From positions 12-64,011 of the forward strand of contig JABDFJ010000004.1 in NCBI GenBank assembly GCA_013286645.1: a stretch of DNA of 64,000 nt, read 5' to 3'. Below the pieces are notes generated by a model. That model was not told the origin of the DNA. It made no database searches and saw only the letters and a program-made list of their open reading frames with translations. Made by a program: the position numbers and the translations under genes. This document shows, in pieces, positions 3,274 to 57,186 of this stretch. Position 1 is the stretch's first letter, and every line of letters begins with the position of its first letter. Source of the stretch: Chlamydiota bacterium. GTDB lineage: Bacteria > Chlamydiota > Chlamydiia > Chlamydiales > Parachlamydiaceae.

Positions 3274-4395
3274 TTGAAATTCAAAGCTTTGCTTGAGAGC
3301 AAAATTATCCGTCGCGCGAATAAGCGCGTCCGTCATTTCGGGATGATAAGGTGTATGCGCACCATTTTCGACTAAATCAAAACTGACATTCCCCCCAACA
3401 CTTCTAATGCCATCTACAAGCTTTTCTGCAATCTTATAACAGCACAAATTATCTTTTTTACCTTGCACCACCTTGACAGGGATATCCTTAAGCGACTGCA
3501 TGCGGCTTTCATCCAAAAGGTTCACCATCTTTGGCACAGTGTCAAACATCTGCGTTTCCCAAACTCCAATCGAGCGCTCTTCAGGTGTCGTTTCTGTGAC
3601 ATCATCCGACAACAAGCGATGAAGGTTTTCTTGATTTCCAGGCTCATCGACATAATCTTCATACGTCTTCCAAATACGGGCTGCCACGAAATCATTTTTC
3701 TCTACCACCAGCTTGCGATATGCCTCATAAATGGTTTGTGGTTGGCACATATCGATATCAACGCCTTTGCTCTTAGCATATTCCTCAATGCGCTTTAAGA
3801 CAGCTGGCTCCCAATCTTTGCCGGCAAGTCTTTTAAGACGCTCTTCAGAAAATAGCATCTCATTCTCTTTGTGCGTCCCCAAATATATCCCTCTCACCAC
3901 AACGCCAGAGCAACTTGCTGGAAACTGTTGTGCATAATAGAGCGAAAGGGTTGATCCCCATGAGCCACCAAAAACCAACCATTTTTCAATGCCTAGATGC
4001 TTCTTTAATACTTCAATATCTTCTGCCAATGTTTGGATGGTGATATCTTTGAAAATGTTAGCGTCGGTAGCAAGATCCATAGCCGATGGCGTGCAATGAT
4101 AGGTGCCCCGTTGTTGAAAGACGATGATGCGGTATTTTTCAGGATCAAACCATTGACAGTCTTTAGGATTGAAAGCCACTCCTGGTCCTCCATGTACAAA
4201 GACTGCAGGGATGCCGTGAGGATTGCCCGATTCTTCCACATGGATGTGCCACCCTTTAGCTACTTCCACAGTCGAAATGATGGGTGCAGTAGGACGATGT
4301 TGTGTTCTCAACGCATCTACCGCACTCTTTTTTGTTTCAATTGGCAGAATATTCAACGGAAGTGAGGGATCAAGTTTTATTGCGTGAACGCCCAT
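3268..4395 (-). CDS. pip: Prolyl aminopeptidase / alpha-beta hydrolase (S33 family)
   Basis: HGGPG oxyanion motif, GGSWGSTL nucleophile elbow, and FQQRGTYHCTP resembling DQRGxGxS. Start moved to ATG 4395 behind GGAGG. Confidence 0.75.
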   Translation of the reverse strand: MGVHAIKLDPSLPLNILPIETKKSAVDALRTQHRPTAPIISTVEVAKGWHIHVEESGNPHGIPAVFVHGGPGVAFNPKDCQWFDPEKYRIIVFQQRGTYHCTPSAMDLATDANIFKDITIQTLAEDIEVLKKHLGIEKWLVFGGSWGSTLSLYYAQQFPASCSGVVVRGIYLGTHKENEMLFSEERLKRLAGKDWEPAVLKRIEEYAKSKGVDIDMCQPQTIYEAYRKLVVEKNDFVAARIWKTYEDYVDEPGNQENLHRLLSDDVTETTPEERSIGVWETQMFDTVPKMVNLLDESRMQSLKDIPVKVVQGKKDNLCCYKIAEKLVDGIRSVGGNVSFDLVENGAHTPYHPEMTDALIRATDNFALKQSFEFQG

Positions 4396-4461
4396 AGATT
4401 GCCTCCAAAAGATTAGAGGCAACATCCTACTTTGTTTATGAAATTCCTGGCAAGAGACTAA

Positions 4462-4720
4462 GAGGAACCAAAAGGACCTAAACGACCTAAAGGACTAAAC
4501 GACAGTGTCCTTTAGTCCTTTAGGTCGTTTTGGTCCTTTAGAGGTAATTGCATAATTCCCGTTTATCGCTTTTTGGCGCTTTCGCCAATCTTCGCCATTT
4601 TGCGCAAATCCCCTACTCTCAAGAGTATGTGGATTTGCGCAAAATGGCGAATCTTGCCAAAATCATCCAAAAATCGATTAAACGGGAATTATGCAATCAC
4701 CTCTTTAGGTCGTTTTTTTA
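4462..4720. repeat. Family-A MITE-like palindromic element, copy 1 (core 4541..4703) with ggacctaaa/cgac flank modules
   Basis: The core is gaggtaattgcataattcccgttta...gccattttgcgcaaatcccctactctcaagagtatgtggatttgcgcaaaatggc...taaacgggaattatgcaatcacctc. Near-identical cores occur at 13018..13181 (same orientation) and 20577..20739 (inverted). 5' fragments occur at about 25115 and about 45885. Confidence 0.85.
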
Positions 4721-5077
4721 ATGGGAACTATTGGGACAAAACGCCGCAAGTTTATCGCCCCACGCCTTCACATTGGCTTTAAACTCCTCCCTTTTATCAG
4801 GATGTTCATCCGCGATCGAGATGAATTCTTTATACACTTGATTAATGCTCTTAACGAGTCGCTGACTCACTTGTTCCGAATATACTGTCCTGTCAGCAAA
4901 CAGATCAACTAATCCATTTTTCTCGCCACCTGAATTTAAGTAACACAAGATACTAGCTTTAAAATGAGTTTTAGTTTGGCGCTTATCAGAGGATTTTACA
5001 TAGAATTCATTGAAAGGACCCACCCCTCCTGCACCACTTGGAGAAATTGGACCATAAACCCCACCCACAAAAGACAT
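4718..5077 (-). CDS. Hypothetical protein (119 aa)
   Basis: ORF with ATG at 5077 preceded by GAGAGG. I recognise no family. Confidence 0.4.
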   Translation of the reverse strand: MSFVGGVYGPISPSGAGGVGPFNEFYVKSSDKRQTKTHFKASILCYLNSGGEKNGLVDLFADRTVYSEQVSQRLVKSINQVYKEFISIADEHPDKREEFKANVKAWGDKLAAFCPNSSH

Positions 5078-5191
5078 AAAACCTCTCAATAGATATTAAC
5101 TATTTAGCGATTGCGTTTATAGAAAGAATGCAGGTATTCTGTGATGTCCACAGGCTTTCAAATAGTTCTTTCTAGTCCTTAAATCAGCTGT

Positions 5192-7336
5192 ATGATTCGC
5201 ATAACGCAACCTATACTTCTACTCCTGCTACTCACGTTTATCCCACTCCATGCGGATTCATTGAGCGAGCAAGAAAATCTCATGAACGACCTCCTCATCG
5301 TCGATTATTGGAACAAAAAGATCAACGACCGCCTTCCCGTCACATATAACAACCTCCTACAAGGCGGATATTTTGCCATGCCCTCCGCCCGCATGGGCGC
5401 CGATGGCGAAATCGGCGGCGGCTATGCCTATGTCCCTCCCTACCGCCTTTATAATATCCGCTGCCAAATCCTCGACCGCCTCGAGCTCTCTGGCAACTAC
5501 CGCGTCTTCCATGGCGTTAAAGACCCCGTCCTCTCCCAACATGGCTTCGGCGACTTCTCCGATAAAGGGGCTAACCTCAAATTTTCGCTTTTTAGTCCGG
5601 AGGATAGCGAATATCAGCTCCCAGGAGTAGCCCTTGGCTGTGAAGACTTCATCGGCACGCGCGCTTTCAATGCCCAATATTTAGTCTTTACCCAAGTATT
5701 CTTAAAGCAAAATCTCGAGATTAGCTTAGGCTATGGCATCAACCGCATTCGTGGTTTCTTTGGTGGCTGCAACTGGATGCCGTTTCGCAAAAGCTGCTGG
5801 CCGCTGCTCGACTCGCTAAGCTTAACCGCCGAATATGACGCCACCCCCTATCGCAGCAAAAGGATAGAACCCCACCCCAGAGGTCACACCAAAAATTCCC
5901 CCTTTAATTTTGGCATGAAATACCGCATTTGGGACTATTTCGATCTATCTTTGAGCTATATGCGTGGGCATACTCTCTCGTTTACAGCTTCGGCCTTCTA
6001 CAACCTCGGCCACACCAAAGGCTTCCTGCCTAAAATTGATGATCCTCTGCCCTACAAGGCCCCCATCAACGTGGAACCTATCGGTATCCGTCGCCCCGAA
6101 GATGCTCTATCCACAGAGCTCCTCTTTGCCTTCCAAGAGCATGGACTGACACTACTTGACATCTACCTCTCATACAACACCTGCAACCGAAAAGTCCTAC
6201 GTCTGAATGTACTCAATGAAACCTACCGCCTAGAAAACGACCTACGCATTCGCCTCAACCACTTTTTAAGCGCCCTGATTCCAAGAGATATCGACGAAGT
6301 CATCATCGTCATCAATTCCGAAGGCTTTCCGATCCAAGAATACCGCTATCAAATGGAATATGTGCGCATGTATGCCGCCAAGGAGATAGGGCCGCACGAA
6401 CTTAAAATCCTCACGCCCCTGCATGAGGTCAGCTGGCCTAATCCCTACACCTCGGCCCACCTCTTACAACGCAAACGCCATCTCTATAACTTTGAATTAG
6501 CCCCTCGCATCCCCGCTATCTTCGGCAGCGCCAGTGGAAAATTCAAATACGCCCTAGGACTCAATGCCGACTTCAATGGCTTTCTATGGAATGACATTTA
6601 TTTTAGCGTACTTTTGGGATACAATTTCATTTCCCATCTTGGCAAAGCGCAAGGGCACGACAGATTAAATCCCTCACAGATCATTCAAGTGCATTCCGAT
6701 GTCATTCGCTATTACCATCAAACGGGTTTGCAATTGGATAATGCCTATCTGCAAAAAAACTGGAATATGGGCTGTGGCTGGTATGGGAAAATTGCTGCCG
6801 GATATTTCGAAGAAGAATATGGCGGCATTGCCAGCCAGCTTCTCTATTATCCTGTCTCTTCTCCATGGGCCATCGGCTTTTCTTATGCCGTCCTCAAAAA
6901 GCGCTCCTATAAAGGATGGGGTTTCACCAGTAAAGTCCGTAAACTTGATGGCTTAAAGCTCACTCACCGCAAATTTCTGGGGACTCAAGGCTTTTTACAC
7001 CTCTATTACGATTGGGAAGCCGCGCGCATGGATTTCAAAATCAGTGCGGGTAAGTTTTTGGCCAACGATTGGGGAGTGCGCAATGAGATCTCGCGTTATT
7101 TTCCTAGCGGCCTGCGCTTGACCTTGTGGTATACGCTGACAAATGGACATGACAAAGTCAATGGGAAGACCTATTACGACAAGGGGATAGCGTTTTCTGT
7201 GCCCTTCGATATCCTCTACACCTATAGTGAGCGCACACGTTGGACCTATGGCATGTCAGCCTGGCTGCGCGACGTCGGCGTGCAGTCCATGACCGGCCTC
7301 GACCTCTACGAACTCATCAACGACCAACGTCAATGA
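5192..7336 (+). CDS. YjbH/GfcD-family outer-membrane exopolysaccharide protein
   Basis: 714 aa with a signal peptide. LLQGGYFAMPSARMGADGEI matches the YjbH GLLQTPTARM..EGE motif. DKGANLKFSLF....PGVALGCEDFIGTRAFNAQYLVFTQ matches the DKAFDLKLRL....[25 protein letters not shown] region of E. coli YjbH as I recall it. Confidence 0.65.
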   Translation: MIRITQPILLLLLLTFIPLHADSLSEQENLMNDLLIVDYWNKKINDRLPVTYNNLLQGGYFAMPSARMGADGEIGGGYAYVPPYRLYNIRCQILDRLELSGNYRVFHGVKDPVLSQHGFGDFSDKGANLKFSLFSPEDSEYQLPGVALGCEDFIGTRAFNAQYLVFTQVFLKQNLEISLGYGINRIRGFFGGCNWMPFRKSCWPLLDSLSLTAEYDATPYRSKRIEPHPRGHTKNSPFNFGMKYRIWDYFDLSLSYMRGHTLSFTASAFYNLGHTKGFLPKIDDPLPYKAPINVEPIGIRRPEDALSTELLFAFQEHGLTLLDIYLSYNTCNRKVLRLNVLNETYRLENDLRIRLNHFLSALIPRDIDEVIIVINSEGFPIQEYRYQMEYVRMYAAKEIGPHELKILTPLHEVSWPNPYTSAHLLQRKRHLYNFELAPRIPAIFGSASGKFKYALGLNADFNGFLWNDIYFSVLLGYNFISHLGKAQGHDRLNPSQIIQVHSDVIRYYHQTGLQLDNAYLQKNWNMGCGWYGKIAAGYFEEEYGGIASQLLYYPVSSPWAIGFSYAVLKKRSYKGWGFTSKVRKLDGLKLTHRKFLGTQGFLHLYYDWEAARMDFKISAGKFLANDWGVRNEISRYFPSGLRLTLWYTLTNGHDKVNGKTYYDKGIAFSVPFDILYTYSERTRWTYGMSAWLRDVGVQSMTGLDLYELINDQRQ

Positions 7337-39539: not shown

Positions 39540-39899
39540 TCAAGCTTTGTGGTCCTCGGAGCTTTCCCCAAAGAGGGAATCGAAACGCTTTTTGGGGTCC
39601 ACATTGCCACCAGCATCATCCACATCGTCGCCAAACAGACGCTTTGCCACGGACCCACTATCTACTTTCTTGGCAGGGGCTTGTCCAAGCAGTTTAAAAT
39701 CTTCACAGAAGTTTGTAGCTGTGCGATCGGCTACATAATCTGTACCTGGCACAGCGCAATCATTGGGTTGACCCGGTTTATAATAGATACAATTTTTGCA
39801 GCAATGCAAAGCTGCATTACACACATCGCAGATAGCCCGAAATGACAACTTTCCCCATGAGGGTTCATCAAGCGTTGCACCACAATTCCAACATTTCAT
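39540..39899 (-). CDS. Small Cys-rich zinc-ribbon protein
   Basis: MKCWNCGATL...CDVCNAALHCCKNCIYY...; ATGA overlap with the upstream MORN-repeat gene. Confidence 0.5.
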   Translation of the reverse strand: MKCWNCGATLDEPSWGKLSFRAICDVCNAALHCCKNCIYYKPGQPNDCAVPGTDYVADRTATNFCEDFKLLGQAPAKKVDSGSVAKRLFGDDVDDAGGNVDPKKRFDSLFGESSEDHKA

Positions 39900-42427
39900 T
39901 CCACATCATCCCATGCACGATTTTCTTGGGGGGTTTTCTTCTTATCAAGCAGCTTATCTTCTGCATAGGATTGAAGGACGAGAGACTTGCCTTCCGCAGT
40001 GTATTTGTTGAATTTGCCATGTCGTTTACCTGCATTATATTCTGCTTCAAAGATAAGCACTCCACTCTTGCTCCACTCCTTGCAAAGACCATTCAGCTTG
40101 CCATGGCAATAGTTGTAGAGACTGATGAGCTGTCCATTGGTAGCAAAGGTTTTTTCTTCCCCTTCCTTTAGATCTTCAACAAAGAGCACTTGCTTTTTGA
40201 TAACTCCATTGGGGTGGTATTCATAGGCCATTCCATTTTGGTTATCGTGGTGAAATTCTGCCGCGATGCTAATGCGTCCCTCATGATTGTATACAGTGAC
40301 AATCCCTTCTTTGAGCCCTTTTTGGTAAGGGGTGCTACCCACTTTGGTGCCAGCTTGGTTATATTCCGAGACTTCCCCTTCAAGCAATCCATTCACGTAA
40401 TTAGCTTCCAATGCTTTGACTTTACCAAAGAAGTCATCTAAAGGATAATAAACCTGATGCAGCCCATCCAGCTCATTGTTTTTATAGTGATAAACGTATT
40501 CACTGTCATCTGCTTTGCGGATATAATAGCGCCCTTCTAGCGAACCCTCATGATAATGAGCCTCCTCGAGGATCTCTCCAGCATTATCCCACAACACCTT
40601 TTTGCCATGGAGAATCCCATCGCGGTATTCCATGAGGATTTTACTTTGGCCATCAGGGAAATATCCCTTTTGTTCCCCGTGCAACTTCCCATCTTGGTAA
40701 TTCATCATACGCGCAATCTGTTGTGGGTGCTCATTTTCTATAGGATAGTAAACCCGTTGCTCACCGATAGGCAAACCACTTGCATAGTGTGAAACTTGCT
40801 GGGGAGCACCATCTTCAAACCAAGAGAGCCATTCTCCATCCAATTTACCAGCCACATATTGTCCTTTACTCGTCATCTTACCATTGGCATGAAATTCTTC
40901 CACAATACCATCAAGATTCCCGTTAATATGCTGAGAAACATTTTTTACAGTGCCATCCTCAAACCACTCTCGATGGCTCCCATGTTTGACGCCATTCACA
41001 TATTCACTTTGTGTTTTGAGTTTGCCGTTGTCATACCATTCTTGGGTTGTCCCTTCCAATAGCCCCTGCAGATAGACAGCTTCGCTGGCTTTTTGTCCAT
41101 TCGCATACCAGGTGTGACTCGGACCCTGTTTTTTACCTTGATCGTAGGTGATAGATACTGCTAGCTTGCCATCAGGATACCATTCCTCATAGACGCCATC
41201 TTTTTTACCACTTTTATATAGTGTTCGCAGTTTAGGTGTATTGTCAGCATAATGTTCTTGTTGCAAACCATCAAAATCGCCCCTCACGTACATGTATTGG
41301 CGCTGCACTTCCCCTTCAGGATAGTACTCCAAAAATTCGCCCTCGTGGACTCCATTGACCAAATAATATTGCTTTTTCAGTTTTCCAGCTGGAGTGTATT
41401 CTTTAACGGGCTCGACGAGCCTGCCGTAATCGTCATAATTGGCAATCCCAATCACTTTACCTTCAGGAGTGCTTTTGGTATGTTTACCTACAGGATTTCC
41501 TGCCACATAACGTCCCTCTCCGATGAGGATACCCTCAATAGAATAGTAGCATTCAGCACCCTGTTTTTTACCTTCGACGTAGCCCACGCGATAGCATTCT
41601 TTGCCATTATCATAGTACTGAACGTATGTACCATACGGTTGCCCCTGCCGGAAATCTTGCACTTCGGCCATGACTCCATTAGGATGATAGCGTGTTAAAG
41701 CATGGCGTTGTCGTTCGCTATTCAGCAACCCTTTTGTATAAAGAGCGACACGTTTAACTTTGCCATCCGGGTACCATTCGATGGATTCTCCAGTTAATAA
41801 ACCATCTTTGTAGTGACGAGAGGCTGCTTTTTTTTCCTCTTCGAAATATTGTGTCACTTCTCCCGTAATGACCCCATGACTATAATGTGAGCGCTCGGCG
41901 ATATCTCCATTAGCATGATATTTCTCCGCAGCTCCATCGTAAATTCCATGTTTTATAGGAACAAAAGACTTCAACAAGCCATTAGCATAAAAAGATTTCA
42001 CACTATGAAAGGGAACGTTTTTGTTATAAAAGGCAATTGTGTCAGCGCTCCCTTCTGGGCTGTAAACCACAGAAGGACCATGAAGCATAAATGCGTAGCT
42101 GCCGGCATCATCTGGAGGAAGGGCTAACAAGTCCGTTTCACTATACAGAGATCCCTCTGCTCTATATACCAGAAGCTTGACAGGCGATTTCTGTTCGGTA
42201 CCTTGCATAGGCTCTAACAATAACACTTTTTTTGGCGACCCATTTTCATACGCTTCCAAAATTTCCGGCACCCAATTGGGTTGGCGCATTTTCAACTTTG
42301 TTGATGGTGTAGGTATATGTGAACTTTCTTGAAGAGCTGCCTTGTTGGCAGTTTCTTGCGCAGCTAAAGAGCTGACGGATATAGAGCTAGCAATAAAAAT
42401 CACAGCAATAAAAAGGAACCGATCCAT
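39896..42427 (-). CDS. Exported MORN-repeat-variant (YwqK-like) repeat protein, about 840 aa
   Basis: More than 25 tandem ~23-aa units of the type G.(K/H).G....(W/Y)Y.(N/D)G.(L/K). Signal peptide MDRFLFIAVIFIASSISVSSLAAQ from ATG 42427. Confidence 0.75.
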   Translation of the reverse strand: MDRFLFIAVIFIASSISVSSLAAQETANKAALQESSHIPTPSTKLKMRQPNWVPEILEAYENGSPKKVLLLEPMQGTEQKSPVKLLVYRAEGSLYSETDLLALPPDDAGSYAFMLHGPSVVYSPEGSADTIAFYNKNVPFHSVKSFYANGLLKSFVPIKHGIYDGAAEKYHANGDIAERSHYSHGVITGEVTQYFEEEKKAASRHYKDGLLTGESIEWYPDGKVKRVALYTKGLLNSERQRHALTRYHPNGVMAEVQDFRQGQPYGTYVQYYDNGKECYRVGYVEGKKQGAECYYSIEGILIGEGRYVAGNPVGKHTKSTPEGKVIGIANYDDYGRLVEPVKEYTPAGKLKKQYYLVNGVHEGEFLEYYPEGEVQRQYMYVRGDFDGLQQEHYADNTPKLRTLYKSGKKDGVYEEWYPDGKLAVSITYDQGKKQGPSHTWYANGQKASEAVYLQGLLEGTTQEWYDNGKLKTQSEYVNGVKHGSHREWFEDGTVKNVSQHINGNLDGIVEEFHANGKMTSKGQYVAGKLDGEWLSWFEDGAPQQVSHYASGLPIGEQRVYYPIENEHPQQIARMMNYQDGKLHGEQKGYFPDGQSKILMEYRDGILHGKKVLWDNAGEILEEAHYHEGSLEGRYYIRKADDSEYVYHYKNNELDGLHQVYYPLDDFFGKVKALEANYVNGLLEGEVSEYNQAGTKVGSTPYQKGLKEGIVTVYNHEGRISIAAEFHHDNQNGMAYEYHPNGVIKKQVLFVEDLKEGEEKTFATNGQLISLYNYCHGKLNGLCKEWSKSGVLIFEAEYNAGKRHGKFNKYTAEGKSLVLQSYAEDKLLDKKKTPQENRAWDDVE

Positions 42428-42458
42428 GAGTAAGCCCGTTTTGTTTAATCTCGATTTT

Positions 42459-43652
42459 TCACAATTTTGGAAGTGCCACCGTCTCAACTTCATCTTGGGG
42501 CAATTGATAAGCTGCAGCACTACCAATTAGAAATAATCCCCCTAGAATAGCTAATGCTTTAGCTGGAGCGTCATCGGTGAAACAAGTAGCTAACACTCCT
42601 CCACCTACCTGTCCAATTCCTTCCGAAATGCACCATACCATTCCCATCAAGAAAGCAATCACCATCCCCTTTTGCTCCGGAGCCAATTGGGTTCCAAGCG
42701 AAATAGCCACAGGCTGCACCACCCCCACAGCAGCTCCCAAAATAAATAATAAGCTCAACAATGCCACATTGCTGTAAGCAGGAACAAATAGCAGGGTATA
42801 AAAGGCACACATCCCGATCAACATCGAAATCAATATCACCAGACGACTAGAAAAACGATCTGCTAAGTGACCTGCTGGAATCATCATTAAAGCCCCACCT
42901 AAGATAAACATCATATGCCCTCCTCCAAAAGAAATCCAGGGAGCATAACCACGTGAGCTAAGTAGATCGGGAAGCAAAAACATCGTCCCCCATAACATAC
43001 TTGCATTACATACTTGCGTAAAATAAAGCAGACGCAAGTCTCTATGGCGAAAAAAATTAATAAAAACTTTTAAATCAAAATGCTTGTTGGCTGTCAACAC
43101 ATTGGCTGGTTTCGGAGAGACTAAACTGATAAAGGCCACTAATACCAGAGCTACCGTAGGGATCGCCAACCAGACCACATGACCATCGAACCATTGATGA
43201 AAGGAAGTGAATAAAATCTGACTAAAAGCCATCCCAAAAGCACCGCCAGACGTAAACAACGAGATTAATAAGCCCTTACTTTTCGGTGATAATTCACTCA
43301 TCATACTAGCTGCGGAAGGATGGAAGGCACCAGAACCAGCACAAGTGCATAGATAGAGCGCGAATAGACACAAATAATTGTCGGTGTAGACAAAACAGGC
43401 ACTTGCCGCCGTAGCCAGCAAGCCGCCCAAAATTAGCGCTTTGCGGTAGCCCCTATCACTTAGGGAACCGAAAAGAACTTGCAAACCTTCTCCTACAAAA
43501 GCACAGATACCGCCAATCAAGCCTGCTATGGCCAGATCGAGATGAGCTAACGTCTTATACACGGGCCAGATGCCAATCATGACATCAACCATAAAATGGC
43601 CCAGACATACGATGATGACAGCCAGTAACAATGTTTTTTTCGAAGAGATCAT
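42459..43652 (-). CDS. MFS transporter
   Basis: 12-TM pattern. GSLSDRGYRK matches the loop 2-3 MFS motif. Confidence 0.8.
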   Translation of the reverse strand: MISSKKTLLLAVIIVCLGHFMVDVMIGIWPVYKTLAHLDLAIAGLIGGICAFVGEGLQVLFGSLSDRGYRKALILGGLLATAASACFVYTDNYLCLFALYLCTCAGSGAFHPSAASMMSELSPKSKGLLISLFTSGGAFGMAFSQILFTSFHQWFDGHVVWLAIPTVALVLVAFISLVSPKPANVLTANKHFDLKVFINFFRHRDLRLLYFTQVCNASMLWGTMFLLPDLLSSRGYAPWISFGGGHMMFILGGALMMIPAGHLADRFSSRLVILISMLIGMCAFYTLLFVPAYSNVALLSLLFILGAAVGVVQPVAISLGTQLAPEQKGMVIAFLMGMVWCISEGIGQVGGGVLATCFTDDAPAKALAILGGLFLIGSAAAYQLPQDEVETVALPKL

Positions 43653-43752: not shown

Positions 43753-43982
43753 TTTCGGGCAAGGGCACGCACGGTACATGTTCACGTTCGGTATAGCTTT
43801 CGTGCCCGTGTGCGTGCCCGTGCCCGTGCCCGAATTTATCTACCCGCTATCTTTAGAACTTTTAACCTTAATTAACGTTGCCGATCACGTTTTCATTCCC
43901 ACTCTTCTTTCGGGCACCGGCACGGGCACGCACACGGGCACGAAAGCTACACTCTCCCTGAACATGTACCACGCACGCGCCT
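43753..43982. repeat. Family-C palindromic element, copy 1 (cgtgcccgtg modules)
   Basis: gtacatgttcacg...ctttcgtgcccgtgtgcgtgcccgtgcccgtgcccgaa and its inverse ttcgggcaccggcacgggcacgcacacgggcacgaaag...gaacatgtac. The second copy at 56671..56871 shares the central spacer (cacgttttcattc.cactcttctttcggg). Confidence 0.85.
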
Positions 43983-43986
43983 CCTA

Positions 43987-44181
43987 ATTACCCATAAGTC
44001 CGCATTGCATTAAAAACACTATTCTGAAACACAGAGGCACAGAGAACATAGAGAGGGAAATTTTGTTTCGTTAAATACATATAGAGACTTCTCCATATAG
44101 AGACTTCTCCATCCTCTCTGTGTCCTCTGTGTCTCTGTGTTTCAAAAATATGGTTTGATGCAATGCGGACTTATGGGTAAT
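43987..44181. repeat. Family-D element nested inside the additional arm pair acccataagtccgcattgcat / atgcaatgcggacttatgggt
   Basis: Read directly from the sequence. Inner arms are gaaacacagaggcacagagaacatagagagg and cctctctgtgtcctctgtgtctctgtgtttc. Confidence 0.85.
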
Positions 44182-44343
44182 AGCATGGGGGCACGAAATT
44201 CATTAGGTCATGCAAGATATCTAGATAAATAGGCATAAAGGCTGAGACACCGACCGTATAGCTTAAAAAAAACTTGAAAGTTTACACCCTGAATGTTAAG
44301 AAAGAAATTAGACAAAAACCAAACTTCATTTAGGAGATTTCCC

Positions 44344-45396
44344 ATGAAAAAAATCAATAAGCCTGATCTGAAAAAGTTGGCCTTACTAGGTCTAGCAGGT
44401 GGCACAATCATAGCTTCGCAGCAAGCTTCAGCTGATCAGTTACAAGATCTCAATAACTATGGCACTCTATTAGCATTTGCTGGTTGTGGTGGCGGAAGCT
44501 GCGGTGCCAAGCTCCCAGTTCCACCTCAAACAGCAGGAAGAGAAACTGCTTGGAATGGCAGCTACAACCAAAGCGGACAAAACTATTACTCTGATTACCA
44601 ACAACCTTCACATGGTTGCGGTTCATCTTCACAACAATGGCAATCCTACAACTATCAACAACCATCTCACGGCTGTGGATCTGCTCAACCAGCGCCATCC
44701 TACTACACCAACGCACAACCACAGCAATCTCATGGTTGTGGCGCAGCTCAGCCCGCTCCTTCATACTACACCAACTACCAACCGCAACAATCGCATGGCT
44801 GTGGCGCAGCTCAACCAGCACCACAAGCGCAAGCTTCCTACCAAAATAACAATTCCCAAGGATGGAATCGCTATACTGCAGATGCAGCCCCTACTTCCAC
44901 AGATCAATCTACCATGCCAGCTCCCGCACCTGTAAAACCTGTAAAGCCAGGACAGCCAATGCCAACAGATCCAACTGCGCCACAAACGCCTCCTCCTGCT
45001 TCATACAACAACAGCAATGCACGCAATAATAACACCAGTCTTTCTGCCTATTTCACAGCCGATGCGAGCAAGCCTGCTACTCAACAAGCTAGCGACAAAC
45101 AAGCTCCAATGTCTGAAAGCGAGCTAGTATCCAAGCTTAATAGCGAAGGTAAAGCCACTTTTCAAAGCTTAGATCCTGCTGGCAAAGCTTTGGCTCTCAA
45201 GTTAGCTAACCAAACTTGCAAAGGTCAAAACGACTGCAAAGGCTTAAATTCCTGCAAAACAGCTAACAACAGCTGCGCTGGCAATGGCAGCTGCAAAGGG
45301 ACAAGCAAAGGACCTTTCACAGACAAAAATACAGCTGTAAAAGTAGCAGCTAAAAAAATGAGCGACAAGCGTGTCAACGCAGCTTCTCCAAGCTAA
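44344..45396 (+). CDS. Secreted repeat protein with four SHGCG tandem repeats and a 5-Cys C-terminal module; candidate MNIO substrate (large precursor)
   Basis: ATG 44344 behind AGGAGA. Signal peptide MKKINKPDLKKLALLGLAGGTIIASQQASA. Repeats lie at 44596..44841. The CKGQNDCKGLNSCKTANNSCAGNGSCKG module lies at 45208..45300. It is on the same strand as, and upstream of, the DUF692/DUF2063 genes. Confidence 0.6.
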   Translation: MKKINKPDLKKLALLGLAGGTIIASQQASADQLQDLNNYGTLLAFAGCGGGSCGAKLPVPPQTAGRETAWNGSYNQSGQNYYSDYQQPSHGCGSSSQQWQSYNYQQPSHGCGSAQPAPSYYTNAQPQQSHGCGAAQPAPSYYTNYQPQQSHGCGAAQPAPQAQASYQNNNSQGWNRYTADAAPTSTDQSTMPAPAPVKPVKPGQPMPTDPTAPQTPPPASYNNSNARNNNTSLSAYFTADASKPATQQASDKQAPMSESELVSKLNSEGKATFQSLDPAGKALALKLANQTCKGQNDCKGLNSCKTANNSCAGNGSCKGTSKGPFTDKNTAVKVAAKKMSDKRVNAASPS

Positions 45397-45472
45397 TTGG
45401 AGAAGTTATGCCATCACCTCTCGAACTCTATATTCGAGAGAATGGCATTTTATTTTCTGTCCGTGTAATTTA

Positions 45473-45499
45473 TTAGCCGGCATCAGCCGGCTAATTTTT
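45473..45499 (+). terminator. Intrinsic terminator or attenuator between the two precursor-candidate genes
   Basis: ttagccgg-catcag-ccggctaa followed by ttttt. A second hairpin ctctcgaa...ttcgagag lies at 45418..45440. Confidence 0.5.
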
Positions 45500-45521: not shown

Positions 45522-45845
45522 ATGAAAAAGTCCAAACTAACAAAACTCGCCTTACTCGGCATGGCCGGTGGTGTACTCGCTGCTGCACAGCCAAGCTTAG
45601 AAGGTGTCCAAGATAATAATTCTATCGACATCCAACACCTCATAGCAATGCCAAAATGTGCCGCGCATGGATGTGCCTCTTTAACGGCTGATTCTGACGC
45701 CCCTACTAAAGCAAGTGATGATAAAGCCAATGGGGTCGATTTAGACGATGACACCGATCAACCCAAAACCGATGATAAAACAAAAAATAGCACCCCTAAA
45801 AAATCGGACGCTCCAGCAGCTTCGAAATATATGCTTCAATGCTAA
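45522..45845 (+). CDS. Small secreted protein (107 aa) with KCAAHGC motif and a C-terminal Cys; second candidate MNIO substrate
   Basis: Strong Shine-Dalgarno AAGGAG. The signal peptide MKKSKLTKLALLGMAGGVLAAAQP is homologous to that of the 44344 gene. The tail is acidic and Lys-rich. Confidence 0.55.
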   Translation: MKKSKLTKLALLGMAGGVLAAAQPSLEGVQDNNSIDIQHLIAMPKCAAHGCASLTADSDAPTKASDDKANGVDLDDDTDQPKTDDKTKNSTPKKSDAPAASKYMLQC

Positions 45846-46301: not shown

Positions 46302-47180
46302 ATGCAACGTCGATCATCACTCCCCAATTTAGGCATCGGCATAGGGCTGCGCATCCCGCACTATGAGGACATCTTTACACAACAGCCTAATATCGACTGG
46401 TTTGAAATCATCAGTGAAAATTTTATGGTTGATGGAGGCAAGCCACTCGAAAATCTACATCGCATACTCGAAAGATATCCCGTCGTACAGCATGGAGTAT
46501 CTTTAGCTATAGGCAGTCCAGATCCCCTCGATTTTGAATATCTCAAGCAACTCAAAGCCCTGACCAAAATTACTAAGACTCCATGGGTTTCCGACCATCT
46601 ATGTTGGGGACGGCTTCCTGGGGCACATTATCACGATTTACTTCCCTTGCCCTATACAAAAGAAGTCATCAACTATGTAGCTGAGCGTGCCCGCATTGTA
46701 CAAGATTATCTCGAATTGCCATTTGCCCTCGAAAACTTATCTTCATATGTCGCCTTCCGTAAGGATGAAATGACTGAATGGGAATTTTATAGCGCCGTCG
46801 TAGAAAAAGCTGACATCTTTATGATGCTCGATGTAAACAACATTTATGTCTCTAGTCGCAATCACGGTTTCGACCCCAAGGAATATTATACAAACATCCC
46901 TCTCGACCGCGTGATACAAATCCATCTCGCTGGGCATAGCGATTATGATGCTTATGTTTTAGACACACATGATAACTATGTTAGAGATGAAGTGTGGAAG
47001 ATCTATGCCGACGTTTACCCTCTTACAGGAGGGGTATCGACATTACTCGAATGGGATGATAAATTCATTAGCTTCCAAGACACCTGGGATGAAGCCCTTA
47101 AAGCCAAACAATTCCAACAAGATATCCATCAGCGTCATCCTCATTTAGCTAAAGCTGGTTTGCAGGAGCTATGCAAATGA
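46302..47180 (+). CDS. DUF692/UPF0276 protein = multinuclear non-heme iron oxidase (MNIO; MbnB/BufB/HvfB family)
   Basis: LGIGIGLRIPHYEDIF, IDWFEIISENFM, HGVSLAIGS, WVSDHLCW, PFALENLSSYV, LDVNNIYVSSRNHGFDP and IHLAGH follow the conserved order of DUF692 TIM-barrel proteins. Start set at ATG 46302. Confidence 0.85.
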   Translation: MQRRSSLPNLGIGIGLRIPHYEDIFTQQPNIDWFEIISENFMVDGGKPLENLHRILERYPVVQHGVSLAIGSPDPLDFEYLKQLKALTKITKTPWVSDHLCWGRLPGAHYHDLLPLPYTKEVINYVAERARIVQDYLELPFALENLSSYVAFRKDEMTEWEFYSAVVEKADIFMMLDVNNIYVSSRNHGFDPKEYYTNIPLDRVIQIHLAGHSDYDAYVLDTHDNYVRDEVWKIYADVYPLTGGVSTLLEWDDKFISFQDTWDEALKAKQFQQDIHQRHPHLAKAGLQELCK

Positions 47181-48076
47181 CCTATGATGCTAAAGTACCC
47201 ACACTTTTGAAGCGCGAGCAACAGTGGTTTGGAGGTATCATCGGACGCCCTATCGATGAAGATAGCCGCATGAACCCCATCGCCCCTTCTGGCGAACCTA
47301 TGGAAATAGAAGCAGCGGACCATATTGCACCCAGTCCCACACTGAGACCTGCGCAACGCATCCAAATATACAACCAACAATACTGGTGGCGTCTGCTCAA
47401 TACATTGCATGATTCTTTTCCCATGCTTACGCGTCTATTTGGTTATTATGATTTCAACAAAACCATTGGCATTCCCTATTTAGTCAAAAATCCACCACAC
47501 CATTGGTCGTTGAATTTATTAGGAGATCATTTATTGCAATGGCTAGAAGGCTGCTATCATGCTAAAGACAAAAAACTCGTATGCAATGCTGCCCATTTAG
47601 ATTGGGCCTTCAGCCATAGCTTTGTGGCAGGGCAACGCCCTCCTATCACCGTTGAGCAGCTATCAAATGCTGAAGAGAGAGAACAAATCTTAAGCCAAAC
47701 CATTTATTTACAGCCCCATATCCACTTATTTCAGATGGAACACCATCTGTTTAATTTTAGAAACGAATTTTTAAAAGAAAATCCTGAATATTGGCTGACA
47801 AATGATTTCCCCAAACTTGAACGCGACAAAACTTATCTCTTCATTCTATACCGCAATGCAAAAAAAGATATTTCATGGAAAGAAATCTCTCTTGGAGAAT
47901 ATCATTTGCTAAGCTTCTTCAAGCAGGGAGCGACAATAGAAAACGCATGTGATTGGCTTGAAAAACAAGACGACACCTTGTGCGAAGAAGCCACGAACAA
48001 TTTACAACTATGGTTCCAAGAATGGTCCCAGCGGGGATGGCTTTCTCTTTCCCCATCACTTACACCCGCCTTATGA
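47171..48076 (+). CDS. DUF2063-domain protein (MbnC/BufC/HvfC-like MNIO partner)
   Basis: IQIYNQQYWWRLLNTLHDSFPMLTRLFGYYDFNKTIGIPYLVKNPPHHWSLNLLGDHLLQWL fits the DUF2063 N-terminal helical domain pattern. It overlaps the MNIO gene by 10 nt. Confidence 0.75.
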   Translation: MQMTYDAKVPTLLKREQQWFGGIIGRPIDEDSRMNPIAPSGEPMEIEAADHIAPSPTLRPAQRIQIYNQQYWWRLLNTLHDSFPMLTRLFGYYDFNKTIGIPYLVKNPPHHWSLNLLGDHLLQWLEGCYHAKDKKLVCNAAHLDWAFSHSFVAGQRPPITVEQLSNAEEREQILSQTIYLQPHIHLFQMEHHLFNFRNEFLKENPEYWLTNDFPKLERDKTYLFILYRNAKKDISWKEISLGEYHLLSFFKQGATIENACDWLEKQDDTLCEEATNNLQLWFQEWSQRGWLSLSPSLTPAL

Positions 48077-49317
48077 CACCTCGTGAAGCCGCATATTGCG
48101 CCCTATTAGCCTCATTACGCCAGGAAAACTTCATCACCCATTCGCTTGAAGCATGGCAACAAAAACATCATCCCTCCTCACTAGACTTTGCCTTCGCCCT
48201 AGAAATAGCCTCTGGCTCTGCTCGTATGGCTCTTGCTTTAGACCATATTGCCGCACAACTTTCTACCCATCAAAAACTGTCACTCAAATTGAAAGAGCGC
48301 GCTCTATTGCGTACCGCCATTTATCAACATTACTACATGGATAAAGTGCCCCTTTACGCCATTGTCAATGAAACCATCAACATCGGTAAAAAATATTGTC
48401 ATCGCACATTTGTCAGTTACCTCAATGCCATGCTGCGACAATTAAATGTCATATCACCGACCCTCCCAACTGGTGACTCTACACATAATTTAAGTGTCCG
48501 CTATTCCTATCCTGAATATTTTGTCCAGCAGCTAGTGAAAGACTATGGACAAGCAACCACCATCGACATCCTCAATGCTGGCAATCAACGTCCTGTCACC
48601 ATGGTGCGGTTACGTCCCGGTATGCATTTAGAAGGAGATGCCTTTAGACAACTTACCCCTCTTAAACACGCCGAGCTTCCCGTCGCGATTTGCTATTTGC
48701 AAAATGTTATGATTGACATAGCAGCTTCTCCAGGGTGTTACATCCAAAATGCCACACCAGCCACATTAATTGCCGATTTAGCCCAGCTGAGTCCGACGCC
48801 CCAACGCATTTTAGATTTATGTGCCTCGCCTGGAGGCAAATTACTTGCAGCCCACGATGCCTTCCCTCAAGCTACTTTGTACGCCAATGATATCTCTCCC
48901 GATAAACTGCAACGCCTCACACAAAATCTAATCAAATATAAAACATCGGCCCAATTGTCGTGTGGACAAGGAGAAGATTACCCCACCAACGAACAATTTG
49001 ATATCGTCATTTTAGATGTACCTTGCAGCAATAGTGGTGTGTTAAACAAACGTTCAGAGGCACGCTGGCGCTTAACACCGGAAGCCTTGCAACAATTAAA
49101 GTTAACACAGCAAAAACTGTTAGCACACGCCTCCAAATTGATCAACAAAGAGGGTGTGCTTTGGTATCTAACGTGCAGTATTCTTAAAGAGGAAAACGAA
49201 CAGCTGCTAGCAGCGTTTTGTCAGCAGCATGCCATGAGAATAACCTATTCCCGCACCGTCTTGCCCAATGTGGAAGGATGGGATGGAGGCTATGCTTGCT
49301 TATTGCAAAAAAGCTAA
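48073..49317 (+). CDS. rsmB: 16S rRNA m5C methyltransferase (RsmB/Sun family)
   Basis: NusB-like N-terminal domain, SAM site DLCASPGGKLL, and catalytic ILDVPCSNSGVL and TCSI. ATG 48073 overlaps the DUF2063 stop (ATGA). Confidence 0.8.
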   Translation: MTPREAAYCALLASLRQENFITHSLEAWQQKHHPSSLDFAFALEIASGSARMALALDHIAAQLSTHQKLSLKLKERALLRTAIYQHYYMDKVPLYAIVNETINIGKKYCHRTFVSYLNAMLRQLNVISPTLPTGDSTHNLSVRYSYPEYFVQQLVKDYGQATTIDILNAGNQRPVTMVRLRPGMHLEGDAFRQLTPLKHAELPVAICYLQNVMIDIAASPGCYIQNATPATLIADLAQLSPTPQRILDLCASPGGKLLAAHDAFPQATLYANDISPDKLQRLTQNLIKYKTSAQLSCGQGEDYPTNEQFDIVILDVPCSNSGVLNKRSEARWRLTPEALQQLKLTQQKLLAHASKLINKEGVLWYLTCSILKEENEQLLAAFCQQHAMRITYSRTVLPNVEGWDGGYACLLQKS

Positions 49318-49862
49318 CAACAGCAGCCAGTGCTTGATACGGGCTTTTGTTGGCTTGGCGGCAAGGCTATCGCACTGATCAGGCGTCCTCCCAAATCCTT
49401 GACTATGCCAACCGCTTCACGACCGATCCACAATCCAAGAAATAAACCACAAAAAGGCACATAAAATTGAGGATCATGGCGCATGTGAGCCCCTATGAAG
49501 GTAGCTGTGGCAACAGTGCCGATTTCAGAAGGGAAGCGCATTCCGGAAAGAAAATCCATATAACCTTGCGCACACACAGGTTTGCTTTCCCCTGCTGGAA
49601 ATAGAGGCTTCTTTAACCAAGAGCAGGAGAAGGCATATCCTCCACCAACGATAATACCTAAACCTAGACTGACACCAAAATGCATAGGGGCAATCCATGC
49701 CGCAAAGATGCCGATAGCAACGCGACAGATGCGGTCAATAATCTTAAGCCAGGGCGATGCCTTGGAGGTTGGCTGACAACAACTAGTTTGATTTACGTCC
49801 GCCACAGGTTCCTTGGGTGCTACGAGTGCAGCGGGTGCAACAACAACAGAAGATAAATGCAT
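49314..49862 (-). CDS. Hypothetical membrane protein with Cys-rich termini
   Basis: GAGAGG Shine-Dalgarno. Two paired hydrophobic segments (VAIGIFAAWIAPMHFGVSLGLGIIVGGGYAF and VPFCGLFLGLWIG). SCC near the N-terminus and GCCC at the C-terminus. Confidence 0.45.
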   Translation of the reverse strand: MHLSSVVVAPAALVAPKEPVADVNQTSCCQPTSKASPWLKIIDRICRVAIGIFAAWIAPMHFGVSLGLGIIVGGGYAFSCSWLKKPLFPAGESKPVCAQGYMDFLSGMRFPSEIGTVATATFIGAHMRHDPQFYVPFCGLFLGLWIGREAVGIVKDLGGRLISAIALPPSQQKPVSSTGCCC

Positions 49863-56670: not shown

Positions 56671-57186
56671 GTACATGTTCACAGTAGCGATCTAAGAGAA
56701 TAAATTTCGTGCCCGTGTGCGTGCCCGTGTGCGTGCCCGAATTTATCTACACGTTATCTTAAGGACTTTAAACCTTTGAACCTTATCTATCACGTTTTCA
56801 TTCACACTCTTCTTTCGGGCACCGGCACGGGCACGCACATGGGCACGAAAGCCACACACCTCGTGAACATGCAATGGTGTCAAATTAAAAAAATATTTAC
56901 AACTAAAAATTGAGGCTAGTCTAGCTTCAATGAGGCATGGGCGCACTGAGACGATTGCAAAAGTCAATTGCTGAGCAAAAAAAGAACAGGATGGGCAGGA
57001 TAGGCAGGATGTACCTTGCAGCAAGATCAACGATGGAAACGATGTAACGATATAACGATTTTTTTTGAAATCTTAATAGGATCGCTAAAATACTCATTGC
57101 AATTCAAAGCTTGATGAATATGACTAGTGTTTTTGCCACACTAATTGGACTTCTCCGTGTACTCTGTGCCTTTGTGTTTCAAAAAT
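56671..57186. repeat. Divergent-promoter spacer filled with repeats: family C copy 2 (56671..56871), family F copy 3 (56985..57059), family D half-copy (57148..57186)
   Basis: Direct sequence similarity to 43753..43982, 2668..2743 and 34611..34754 respectively. Confidence 0.85.

Follow-up and report, generated by a model that had tools for sequence, protein, structure and literature searches.

Four copies of the same cysteine motif succeed one another in a secreted protein that is encoded next to an MNIO (DUF692) maturase on a 64,000-nucleotide stretch of chlamydial DNA (contig JABDFJ010000004.1 of assembly GCA_013286645.1, positions 12 to 64,011; referred to as the window), which raises the question of what these repeats do: Are they substrates of the neighboring enzyme, unmodified metal ligands, structural cross-links, or merely a spacer? 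The gene in question (44344..45396, on the forward strand like all parts of its operon described below) encodes 350 residues with 100% identity to P0001. The protein consists, in this order, of a signal peptide, an N-terminal cysteine pair, the four SHGCG repeats, a linker rich in proline, threonine, and asparagine, a helical scaffold, a Cys-Lys cluster, and a C-terminal helix. Judged by its sequence, it is a Sec-exported composite precursor of the BufA2-type bufferins (captophorins) from an environmental, Parachlamydiaceae-like chlamydia, and the repeats are probably an extension of the known bufferin system that adds further metal-binding sites. A preliminary description of this DNA had already recognized a secreted cysteine-containing product near an MNIO, which is borne out by the Sec signal and by the genes of a BufB-type MNIO and its DUF2063 partner downstream; the BufA2 module in the last 60 residues of the precursor had been overlooked.

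The four units occupy positions 44596..44652 (YQQPSHGCGSSSQQWQSYN), 44653..44712 (YQQPSHGCGSAQPAPSYYTN), 44713..44775 (AQPQQSHGCGAAQPAPSYYTN), and 44776..44841 (YQPQQSHGCGAAQPAPQAQASY); they follow each other without interruption, comprise 19, 20, 21, and 22 residues, respectively, and each contain SHGCG, which places the cysteines of this motif 19–21 residues apart. The translation of 44596..44841 is identical to the one from which four tandem repeats of about 20 residues had initially been read. Tandem Repeats Finder detects a 63-bp period with 2.6 copies and 77% matches at 44658..44823, i.e., in the last 2.6 units, and when the mature protein was shuffled 200,000 times with its composition preserved, no shuffle produced two or more HGCG motifs. 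The same five residues are written with different codons from unit to unit: SHGCG is encoded by TCA CAT GGT TGC GGT in repeat 1, TCT CAC GGC TGT GGA in repeat 2, TCT CAT GGT TGT GGC in repeat 3, and TCG CAT GGC TGT GGC in repeat 4, and repeats 2 and 3 use different codons at 9 of 15 identical residues. These codon differences are consistent with the earlier proposal of selection at the peptide level rather than recent slippage.

To what extent this pattern is a property of the family becomes apparent from its relatives. A word-indexed search returned 77 homologues of the precursor, and a profile search of 1.84 billion representatives returned 803 clusters (formed at 50% identity) at E ≤ 1e-3 and 467 at E ≤ 1e-10, so that the family comprises at least 467 clusters at the latter threshold. 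The middle region between the N-terminal cysteine pair and the scaffold carries 0–19 cysteines among at least 189 relatives (0–13 among the 77) and lacks cysteine altogether in 6 of 77 and 24 of 112 relatives. Nearly always there is one cysteine per short repeat, and this holds across repeat frames as different as QPSHGCG, GPSHSCQSY, QGSCGGAPR, KSCGASKCSSVA, HKCGGAHGCG, and WDHSCSHGCGS. Statistics on 324–1019 repeat cysteines from 77–189 relatives, with the composition of the same regions as background, define a conserved core [G/S]-C-x-[G/S/A]: Position −1 is glycine or serine at 92% of sites (background 21%), position +2 is glycine, serine, or alanine at 89% (background 28%), and position +1 is glycine, serine, asparagine, alanine, or glutamine. 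Charged residues, which make up about 10% of the region, are depleted to 3.1% of sites at −1 and 1.5% at +1; aromatic residues (10.7% of the regions) never occur at −1, +1, or +2, and proline (10.3%) occupies at most 0.3% of sites at these positions. The BufA2 cluster of the precursor itself likewise favors a small residue at −1 and glycine at +2 (S-C-K-G). These constraints parallel those of FonB/FonC, which do not tolerate proline and need a small residue beside the cysteine (PMC13097082).

Position −2 behaves differently, in that histidine is found there at 18–21% of sites (19.3%) versus 0.92% in the background, an enrichment of about 21-fold. At least two H[GS]C motifs are present in 44 of 189 proteins, and SHGCG-type units recur in unrelated repeat frames, for example three times as WDHSCSHGCGS in locus L042 and also in P0100, P0107, P0120, and P0168. 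The HGCG of the window is thus a local instance of the family motif [G/S]-C-x-[G/S/A], in which the histidine is optional but favored. For the initial reading this has two consequences: HGCG is invariant within the precursor at 44344..45396, whereas the family conserves the shorter core, and the histidine, which had been considered as a further metal ligand, is strongly enriched but far from invariant and therefore cannot be an obligatory one. The alignment of homologues that had been proposed beforehand as a test nevertheless favored the initial idea: Every repeat retains a cysteine, the number of repeats varies from 0 to 19, and conservation is limited to a short core around the cysteine, which is not HGCG. 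Up to four tandem precursor genes lie side by side in L005 (5240..5962) and L007 (3747..5940), including BufA2 proteins with five DHGCKGKGGCG units; they illustrate a cassette-like, hypervariable evolution of cysteine motifs upstream of one conserved BufB.

The enzymatic context of the repeats is set by the C-terminal module and the genes downstream. The BufA2-type Cys-Lys cluster (CKGQNDCKGLNSCKTANNSCAGNGSC, 45217..45294, residues 292–317) contains five cysteines at positions 292, 298, 304, 311, and 317 with a spacing of 5-5-6-5 and follows the pattern CKG-x3-CKG-x3-CKT-x4-CAG-x3-CKG. Residues 286–321 match positions 27–62 of the 79 positions of the NCBIfam profile NF050166 (BufA2) with an E-value of 7.6e-9; the score of 35.7 bits does not reach the curated cutoff (60 bits). 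This profile is also matched, always weakly (best E 2.1e-10), by 53 of 55 family members. The sixth canonical BufA2 cysteine is missing, the sequence there being TSKGPF; relatives with five cluster cysteines and relatives with six are about equally frequent. The pattern belongs to the Cys-Lys precursor type (PMC13097082), and in the Buf2 protein of Caulobacter the central cysteines are converted to copper-binding 5-thiooxazoles (PMC11626156). In proteins of this type, such a Cys-Lys cluster is the canonical MNIO target, for which there is experimental precedent.

The MNIO itself (46302..47180) matches Pfam PF05114 with an E-value of 4.6e-104, exceeds the cutoff of NCBIfam MNIO_BufB (321.7 bits vs 310), and does not reach that of the HvfB model (244.3 bits vs 360); it aligns with PDB 3BWW at E 9e-46. 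At the catalytic-base and specificity positions it reads LLEWDD, while the HvfB-like 3BWW has LLERDF, and this substitution of aspartate for phenylalanine is associated with Cys-Lys substrates (PMC13097082). Its gene is overlapped by that of a BufC/HvfC-like partner (47171..48076), which combines an N-terminal DUF2063 domain (Pfam, 45.8 bits vs a cutoff of 27.2) with a C-terminal domain resembling the recognition element (RRE) of ribosomally made peptides with post-translational modifications (RiPPs); its scores for NGO1945_C (20.2 bits) and NCBIfam HvfC (E 1.8e-7) lie below the respective cutoffs. Because a BufA2-type cluster, a BufB with LLEWDD, and a DUF2063 partner are co-located, the locus is a buf2-like biosynthetic gene cluster.

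How close is this system to those already known? With the Buf2/BufA2 bufferins, such as BufA2 of Caulobacter vibrioides with its partners BufB2/BufC2 (PMC11626156, PMC12452194, PMC13097082), the precursor shares the Sec signal peptide, read here from sequence, a C-x5-C-x5-C-x6-C-x5-C arrangement with Cys-Lys-Gly and Cys-Ala-Gly dyads, and an adjoining BufB-type MNIO that has an aspartate after the catalytic aspartate and is accompanied by a DUF2063 partner; as in Caulobacter buf2, the operon has no DoxX gene. It differs from BufA2 in about 260 extra residues between signal peptide and cluster, which hold the C-x4-C pair, the four SHGCG repeats, and the scaffold, in having five instead of six cluster cysteines, in its subthreshold score against NF050166, and in its host phylum, Chlamydiota. 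The canonical BufA2-type precursors of loci L032–L034 (83 residues) lead directly from the signal peptide to the cysteine cluster, unlike the chlamydial one. The published length range of Buf2 is 51–367 residues (PMC12452194); its upper limit equals the longest reading of the precursor open reading frame (ORF). With the EGKCG captophorins HvfA/oxazolin, fontiphorin, and gonophorin (PMC11252979, PMC13097082) the precursor has in common that short Cys-Gly units are repeated after a Sec signal, and by inference it may resemble them in using multiple modification sites to form a polyvalent copper binder. Unlike them, it has no Lys-Cys and no tandem 5-mers, presenting instead 19–22-residue units in disordered sequence rich in glutamine, proline, and tyrosine, and its enzyme scores as BufB rather than HvfB and carries EWDD rather than ERDF. 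The 350 residues contain no KCG, and BufA2 is the only NCBIfam family matched at E ≤ 0.1. Of the likeness to the EGKCG units of HvfA that had been suggested at the outset, only the Cys-Gly dyad remains. A third group of comparison is the CxxxxC precursor family (PMC12452194): Both C-GGGS-C of the precursor and C-AAHG-C of a small ORF downstream are C-x4-C motifs in signal-peptide proteins near an MNIO; the published family, compared here by its description only, is reported only from Pseudomonadati and often occurs with a Lactamase_B_2 gene. In the broad captophorin class the locus fits by its co-location of MNIO, DUF2063/RRE partner, and cysteine-rich precursor, a combination that also occurs in L041, L043, L045, L046, and L047.

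The remaining parts of the precursor show how the repeats are embedded. The ORF extends over 44293..45396; its longest reading, from the ATG at 44293, comprises 367 residues, and the likely start is the ATG at 44344, which is preceded by AGGAG at 44333–44337, 6 nt upstream. The Sec-type signal peptide (44344..44433, MKKINKPDLKKLALLGLAGGTIIASQQASA), whose regions were read from the sequence, has a lysine-rich n-region, a 13-residue h-region, and a predicted cleavage site ASA|DQ; AlphaFold2 (AF2) predicts a helix in this region at residues 7–24. It carries a family-specific, leader-like motif K-L-A-L-L-G-x-x-x-G, and conservation within the family reaches at least 90% at K10, K11, L12, A13, L14, G16, and G20. 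The CGGGSCG noted in the preliminary description is present at residues 48–54, about 18 residues past the cleavage site and not directly after the signal peptide, as had been stated. Its cysteine pair C-GGGS-C (44485..44502, residues 48–53, inside LLAFAGCGGGSCGAK) consists of an invariant C48 and a C53 that is at least 90% conserved; the family N-terminus has a hydrophobic LLAxxGC with the second cysteine 4–7 residues further on, and in some homologues the HvfA-like double 5-mer GKCGAGKCG stands at the position of the pair. We rejected a lipoprotein reading of LLAFAG|C: Cys48 lies about 18 residues past a normal signal peptidase I site, and the sequence between the h-region and Cys48 is polar. 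Toward the C-terminus, the scaffold (45115..45210, residues 258–289, SELVSKLNSEGKATFQSLDPAGKALALKLANQ) shows the strongest conservation among the folded parts of the family and forms three predicted helices (258–264, 267–275, and 278–289) with a predicted local distance difference test score (pLDDT) of 85–95 in the AF2 model built with the family alignment. A C-terminal amphipathic helix (45325..45384, residues 328–347, KNTAVKVAAKKMSDKR...) is modeled with a pLDDT of about 85; D327, K328, N329, V332, K333, K338, M339, A340, K342, and R343 are conserved in this part. Residues 24–249 have a pLDDT below 50 and are predicted to be disordered; over the whole protein, the mean pLDDT is 52.8 and about 64 residues are modeled confidently.

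On this basis we propose a mechanism in which BufB and BufC would convert the cysteines of the BufA2-type cluster to 5-thiooxazoles in the cytoplasm, before export. Each repeat would offer one additional cysteine in the sterically open context [G/S]-C-x-[G/S/A]; because the repeats fall into the low-pLDDT region, they are predicted to be disordered, and they would therefore be accessible to the enzyme. The repeat cysteines and the N-terminal C-x4-C pair may thus be further targets of BufB/BufC, or at least further metal ligands, the frequent histidine at −2 could act as an auxiliary ligand, and the conserved motif of the signal peptide might serve as the leader for BufC. In the periplasm, the mature protein would accordingly be polyvalent, in contrast to a bufferin with a single site, and would sequester what is presumably copper. 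We assign a probability of about one half to the proposal that the repeat cysteines are further thiooxazole or copper-binding sites in such a disordered polyvalent metallophore.

This idea gained support from three sequence observations: gene fission, a leader motif common to the precursors, and natural versions in which the canonical core is lost. First, the cysteine-repeat module rich in glutamine, serine, and tyrosine is a separate signal-peptide protein in L002, L005, L006, L007, and L026, and its gene is located just upstream of the BufA2 gene and BufB in all five loci. Second, the leader motif in the form K-[LMV]-A-[LV]-[LM]-G-x-x-x-[GSA] is found in 16 ORFs when 330 kb of loci are read in six frames; each of the 16 precedes BufB on its strand by 350–1930 nt, and among them are BufA2 proteins, stand-alone repeat proteins, and small ORFs. 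In the window, the motif occurs in only two ORFs, both of the precursor locus. Third, P0076, P0077, P0123, P0162, and P0168 have lost the BufA2 cysteine cluster and kept the scaffold together with 5–9 repeat cysteines (for example KLASQTTSPGPFRDKN). P0168, which has seven H[GS]C motifs, occupies the syntenic first position of a locus with the order MFS (major facilitator superfamily transporter) / precursor / BufA2 gene / MNIO / HvfC_N / RsmB; P0077 was not located on any contig. In L046 and L047, the operon is made up of a repeat protein without the cluster, the small ORF (LAKPSCKAHGGCGG), BufB in intact form (319 and 316 bits), and DUF2063; neither operon retains a BufA2 cluster. Moreover, canonical Lys-Cys-Gly units stand in the same region of some homologues, either as GKCGAGKCG or, in P0074, as six copies of NKCGAGKCSTVA. 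Finally, the variant FonB-F250D still installs thiooxazoles at Cys-Gly (PMC13097082), and therefore the aspartate at the specificity position of BufB does not exclude Cys-Gly substrates.

Several points weigh against the repeats as enzyme targets. Their modification is a prediction from sequence, and BufB belongs to the Cys-Lys type (EWDD), while the repeats have glycine after the cysteine. All chlamydial BufBs carry EWDD (one EWDE), whatever the type of precursor; therefore, the enzyme shows no co-variation with its substrate. FonB/FonC required a pair of adjacent 5-mers and left a single repeat unmodified (PMC13097082), and the repeat cysteines considered here are separated by the 19–21 residues given above. 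The operons of L046 and L047 do not point to the repeats specifically, because their small ORF (SCKAHGGCGG) might be the sole substrate; moreover, their contigs measure only 4.8 and 11.4 kb, and the genomes may hold a BufA2 gene at another site. On the 998-kb contig of L042, P0063 stands in tandem (4001..5874) with a paralogue that has three WDHSCSHGCGS units and a 6-Cys BufA2 cluster, and no MNIO is encoded within 4 kb of the pair: These tandem precursors are uncoupled from the enzyme locus. The enrichment of histidine, lastly, agrees with simple His/Cys ligation at least as well as with recognition by an enzyme. A more far-reaching version of the proposal, in which BufB acts on a protein scale, is one that we hold only tentatively and would sooner bet against: Thiooxazoles would be formed on single cysteines 15–20 residues apart in a disordered array, in a [G/S]-C-G context, often with histidine at −2, that is unlike the Cys-Lys or Lys-Cys motifs characterized so far; the product would be a hypervariable polyvalent copper sponge of histidines and thiooxazoles directed against phagosomal copper in amoeba-dwelling chlamydiae, and K-L-A-L-L-G would be Sec signal and RiPP leader at the same time.

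The alternative that survives best assumes that the repeat cysteines and their neighboring histidines are unmodified thiolate metal ligands or a redox buffer, similar to metallothioneins or Hpn, and that BufB/BufC act on the BufA2 cluster and perhaps on the N-terminal pair or the small ORF. Helicobacter Hpn, the glutamine-rich Hpn-like protein, metallothioneins, and the Csp copper storage proteins are histidine- or cysteine-rich metal-storage proteins for which metal buffering has been proposed; they are cytoplasmic or folded and are not known to have a linked modifying enzyme. With Hpn-type proteins the precursor shares low-complexity, glutamine-rich sequence with repeated His/Cys ligands, and no sequence relationship is expected. 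The 21-fold enrichment of histidine at −2 suits direct His/Cys coordination, a need of MNIOs for histidine not being known; in addition, the specificity residue of BufB matches Cys-Lys and not Cys-Gly (PMC13097082), and the wide spacing of the cysteines differs from every characterized MNIO substrate. However, the strict window of small residues at −1 and +2 and the exclusion of proline and aromatics are more than metal ligation needs, BufB/BufC are kept in operons after loss of the BufA2 cluster, stand-alone repeat proteins share the leader-like motif, and free thiols in the periplasm would be prone to oxidation. Taken together, we consider this alternative unlikely, though a serious contender.

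Less probable still is that the region is a structural envelope tether, in which intermolecular disulfides would anchor the bufferin module as in the chlamydial outer-membrane complex. Chlamydiae are indeed known for cysteine-rich, disulfide-linked envelope proteins, the region is of low complexity and predicted to be disordered, and the total of 11 cysteines in the precursor is odd, with the sixth BufA2 cysteine missing. Yet the precursor (351-aa query) matches none of the Pfam families at E ≤ 0.1, including the chlamydial cysteine-rich envelope families of the OmcA/OmcB type, and among the loci examined the family occurs only in MNIO operons; the local motif and the histidine enrichment are not expected for simple cross-linking, and canonical GKCG units appear in the same region of homologues. 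That the repeats are a neutral, fast-evolving spacer with incidental cysteines, so that only the BufA2 module would matter, agrees with their highly variable number and sequence (0–19 cysteines) and with the relatives that have no middle cysteine (6 of 77 and 24 of 112), but is very improbable in view of one cysteine per repeat in a constrained context over hundreds of divergent repeats, a peptide kept despite synonymous divergence, and the retention of repeat cysteines by members without BufA2 cysteines.

Bufferins and captophorins have recently been recognized as a very widespread response of bacteria to copper stress. In the Chlamydiota-specific composite precursors described here, the Cys-Lys module is fused with further cysteine motifs that form a hypervariable and disordered array. 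Some natural versions have dispensed with the canonical module but not with the enzyme, and the family is therefore well suited to finding out how wide a range of substrates BufB-type MNIOs accept and whether a Sec signal peptide can double as a RiPP leader. The named relatives and 31 of 35 BufB-anchored loci belong to Parachlamydiaceae, Waddliaceae, or other metagenome-assembled genomes of Chlamydiota; environmental chlamydiae inhabit the vacuoles of amoebae, in which the host could plausibly use copper intoxication as a weapon. A literature search on chlamydia together with DUF692 found no dedicated study. In the genome table of a published survey, Protochlamydia amoebophila and Waddlia chondrophila are each listed with one MNIO, one DUF2063, and zero Buf1, Buf2, or EGKCG precursors, and the same survey describes hundreds of unclassified signal-peptide ORFs with 1–18 cysteines ahead of MNIO genes (PMC12452194). 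Because no precursor is listed for these two chlamydiae, the chlamydial precursors seem to have escaped the existing profiles, and a bufferin defense has probably been overlooked in the phylum.

Between precursor and BufB lies the small ORF mentioned above (45522..45845, 107 residues), a putative second precursor with a leader-like signal peptide, the motif IAMPKCAAHGCASL, which contains the C-x4-C arrangement with histidine (C-AAHG-C), and an acidic disordered tail. It matched no Pfam or NCBIfam family, and a word-indexed homologue search with it (P0078) returned only itself; a homologue search with the stand-alone repeat protein of L005 gave two weak matches only. Because these searches yielded little, the conservation of both proteins was taken from the fetched loci, in which the counterparts of the small ORF occupy an equivalent position and are nearly identical: LAKPSCKAHGGCGG in L001, L029, L043, L046, and L047, and MAKPKCAAHGCADL in L044. 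It is probably a second and previously undescribed type of precursor. A terminator-like hairpin (45472..45495; 10-bp stem with six G-C pairs and a T-run, a consensus match only) separates the precursor gene from the small ORF and the enzyme genes and could act as an attenuator that sets the ratio of precursor to enzyme. A hairpin after the precursor gene is a common layout of RiPP operons, which keeps the precursor in excess. A scan for promoter-like sites gave a result at background level (13 sites vs 11.1 expected).

The order MFS / precursor / small ORF / MNIO / HvfC_N / RsmB is repeated in L043, L045, L046, and L047. Upstream of the precursor and divergent from it, the window encodes an MFS transporter (42459..43652, reverse strand) and a large protein of 876 residues with MORN-like YxxGxxxG repeats (39896..42526, reverse strand). 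An MFS gene is also present in L044 and L045, and L042, L043, L045, and L047 have a gene for about 840–870 residues for which no Pfam hit is recorded; these shared upstream neighbors suggest conserved synteny. Further downstream, a predicted membrane protein of 182 residues (49314..49862, reverse strand) with CC near its N-terminus and the ending ...SSTGCCC has no Pfam match. The intergenic DNA ahead of the precursor contains two conspicuous elements. A nested inverted repeat at 43987..44181, which ends about 160 nt ahead of the precursor start and occurs only once in the window, has 28-nt arms with 96% and 44-nt arms with 82% complementarity and includes two perfect tandem copies of CATATAGAGACTTCTC (44078–44109); it may function as an operator or attenuator, or represent a small mobile element. 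The second, at 43773..43970, is a G+C-rich palindromic element of CGTGCC(C/G) hexamers with 62-nt arms that are 89% complementary and lie 74 nt apart. A further copy of this hexamer palindrome is found about 13 kb away at 56708..56847, and in the otherwise A+T-rich genome the element looks like a repetitive extragenic palindrome or a miniature inverted-repeat transposable element.

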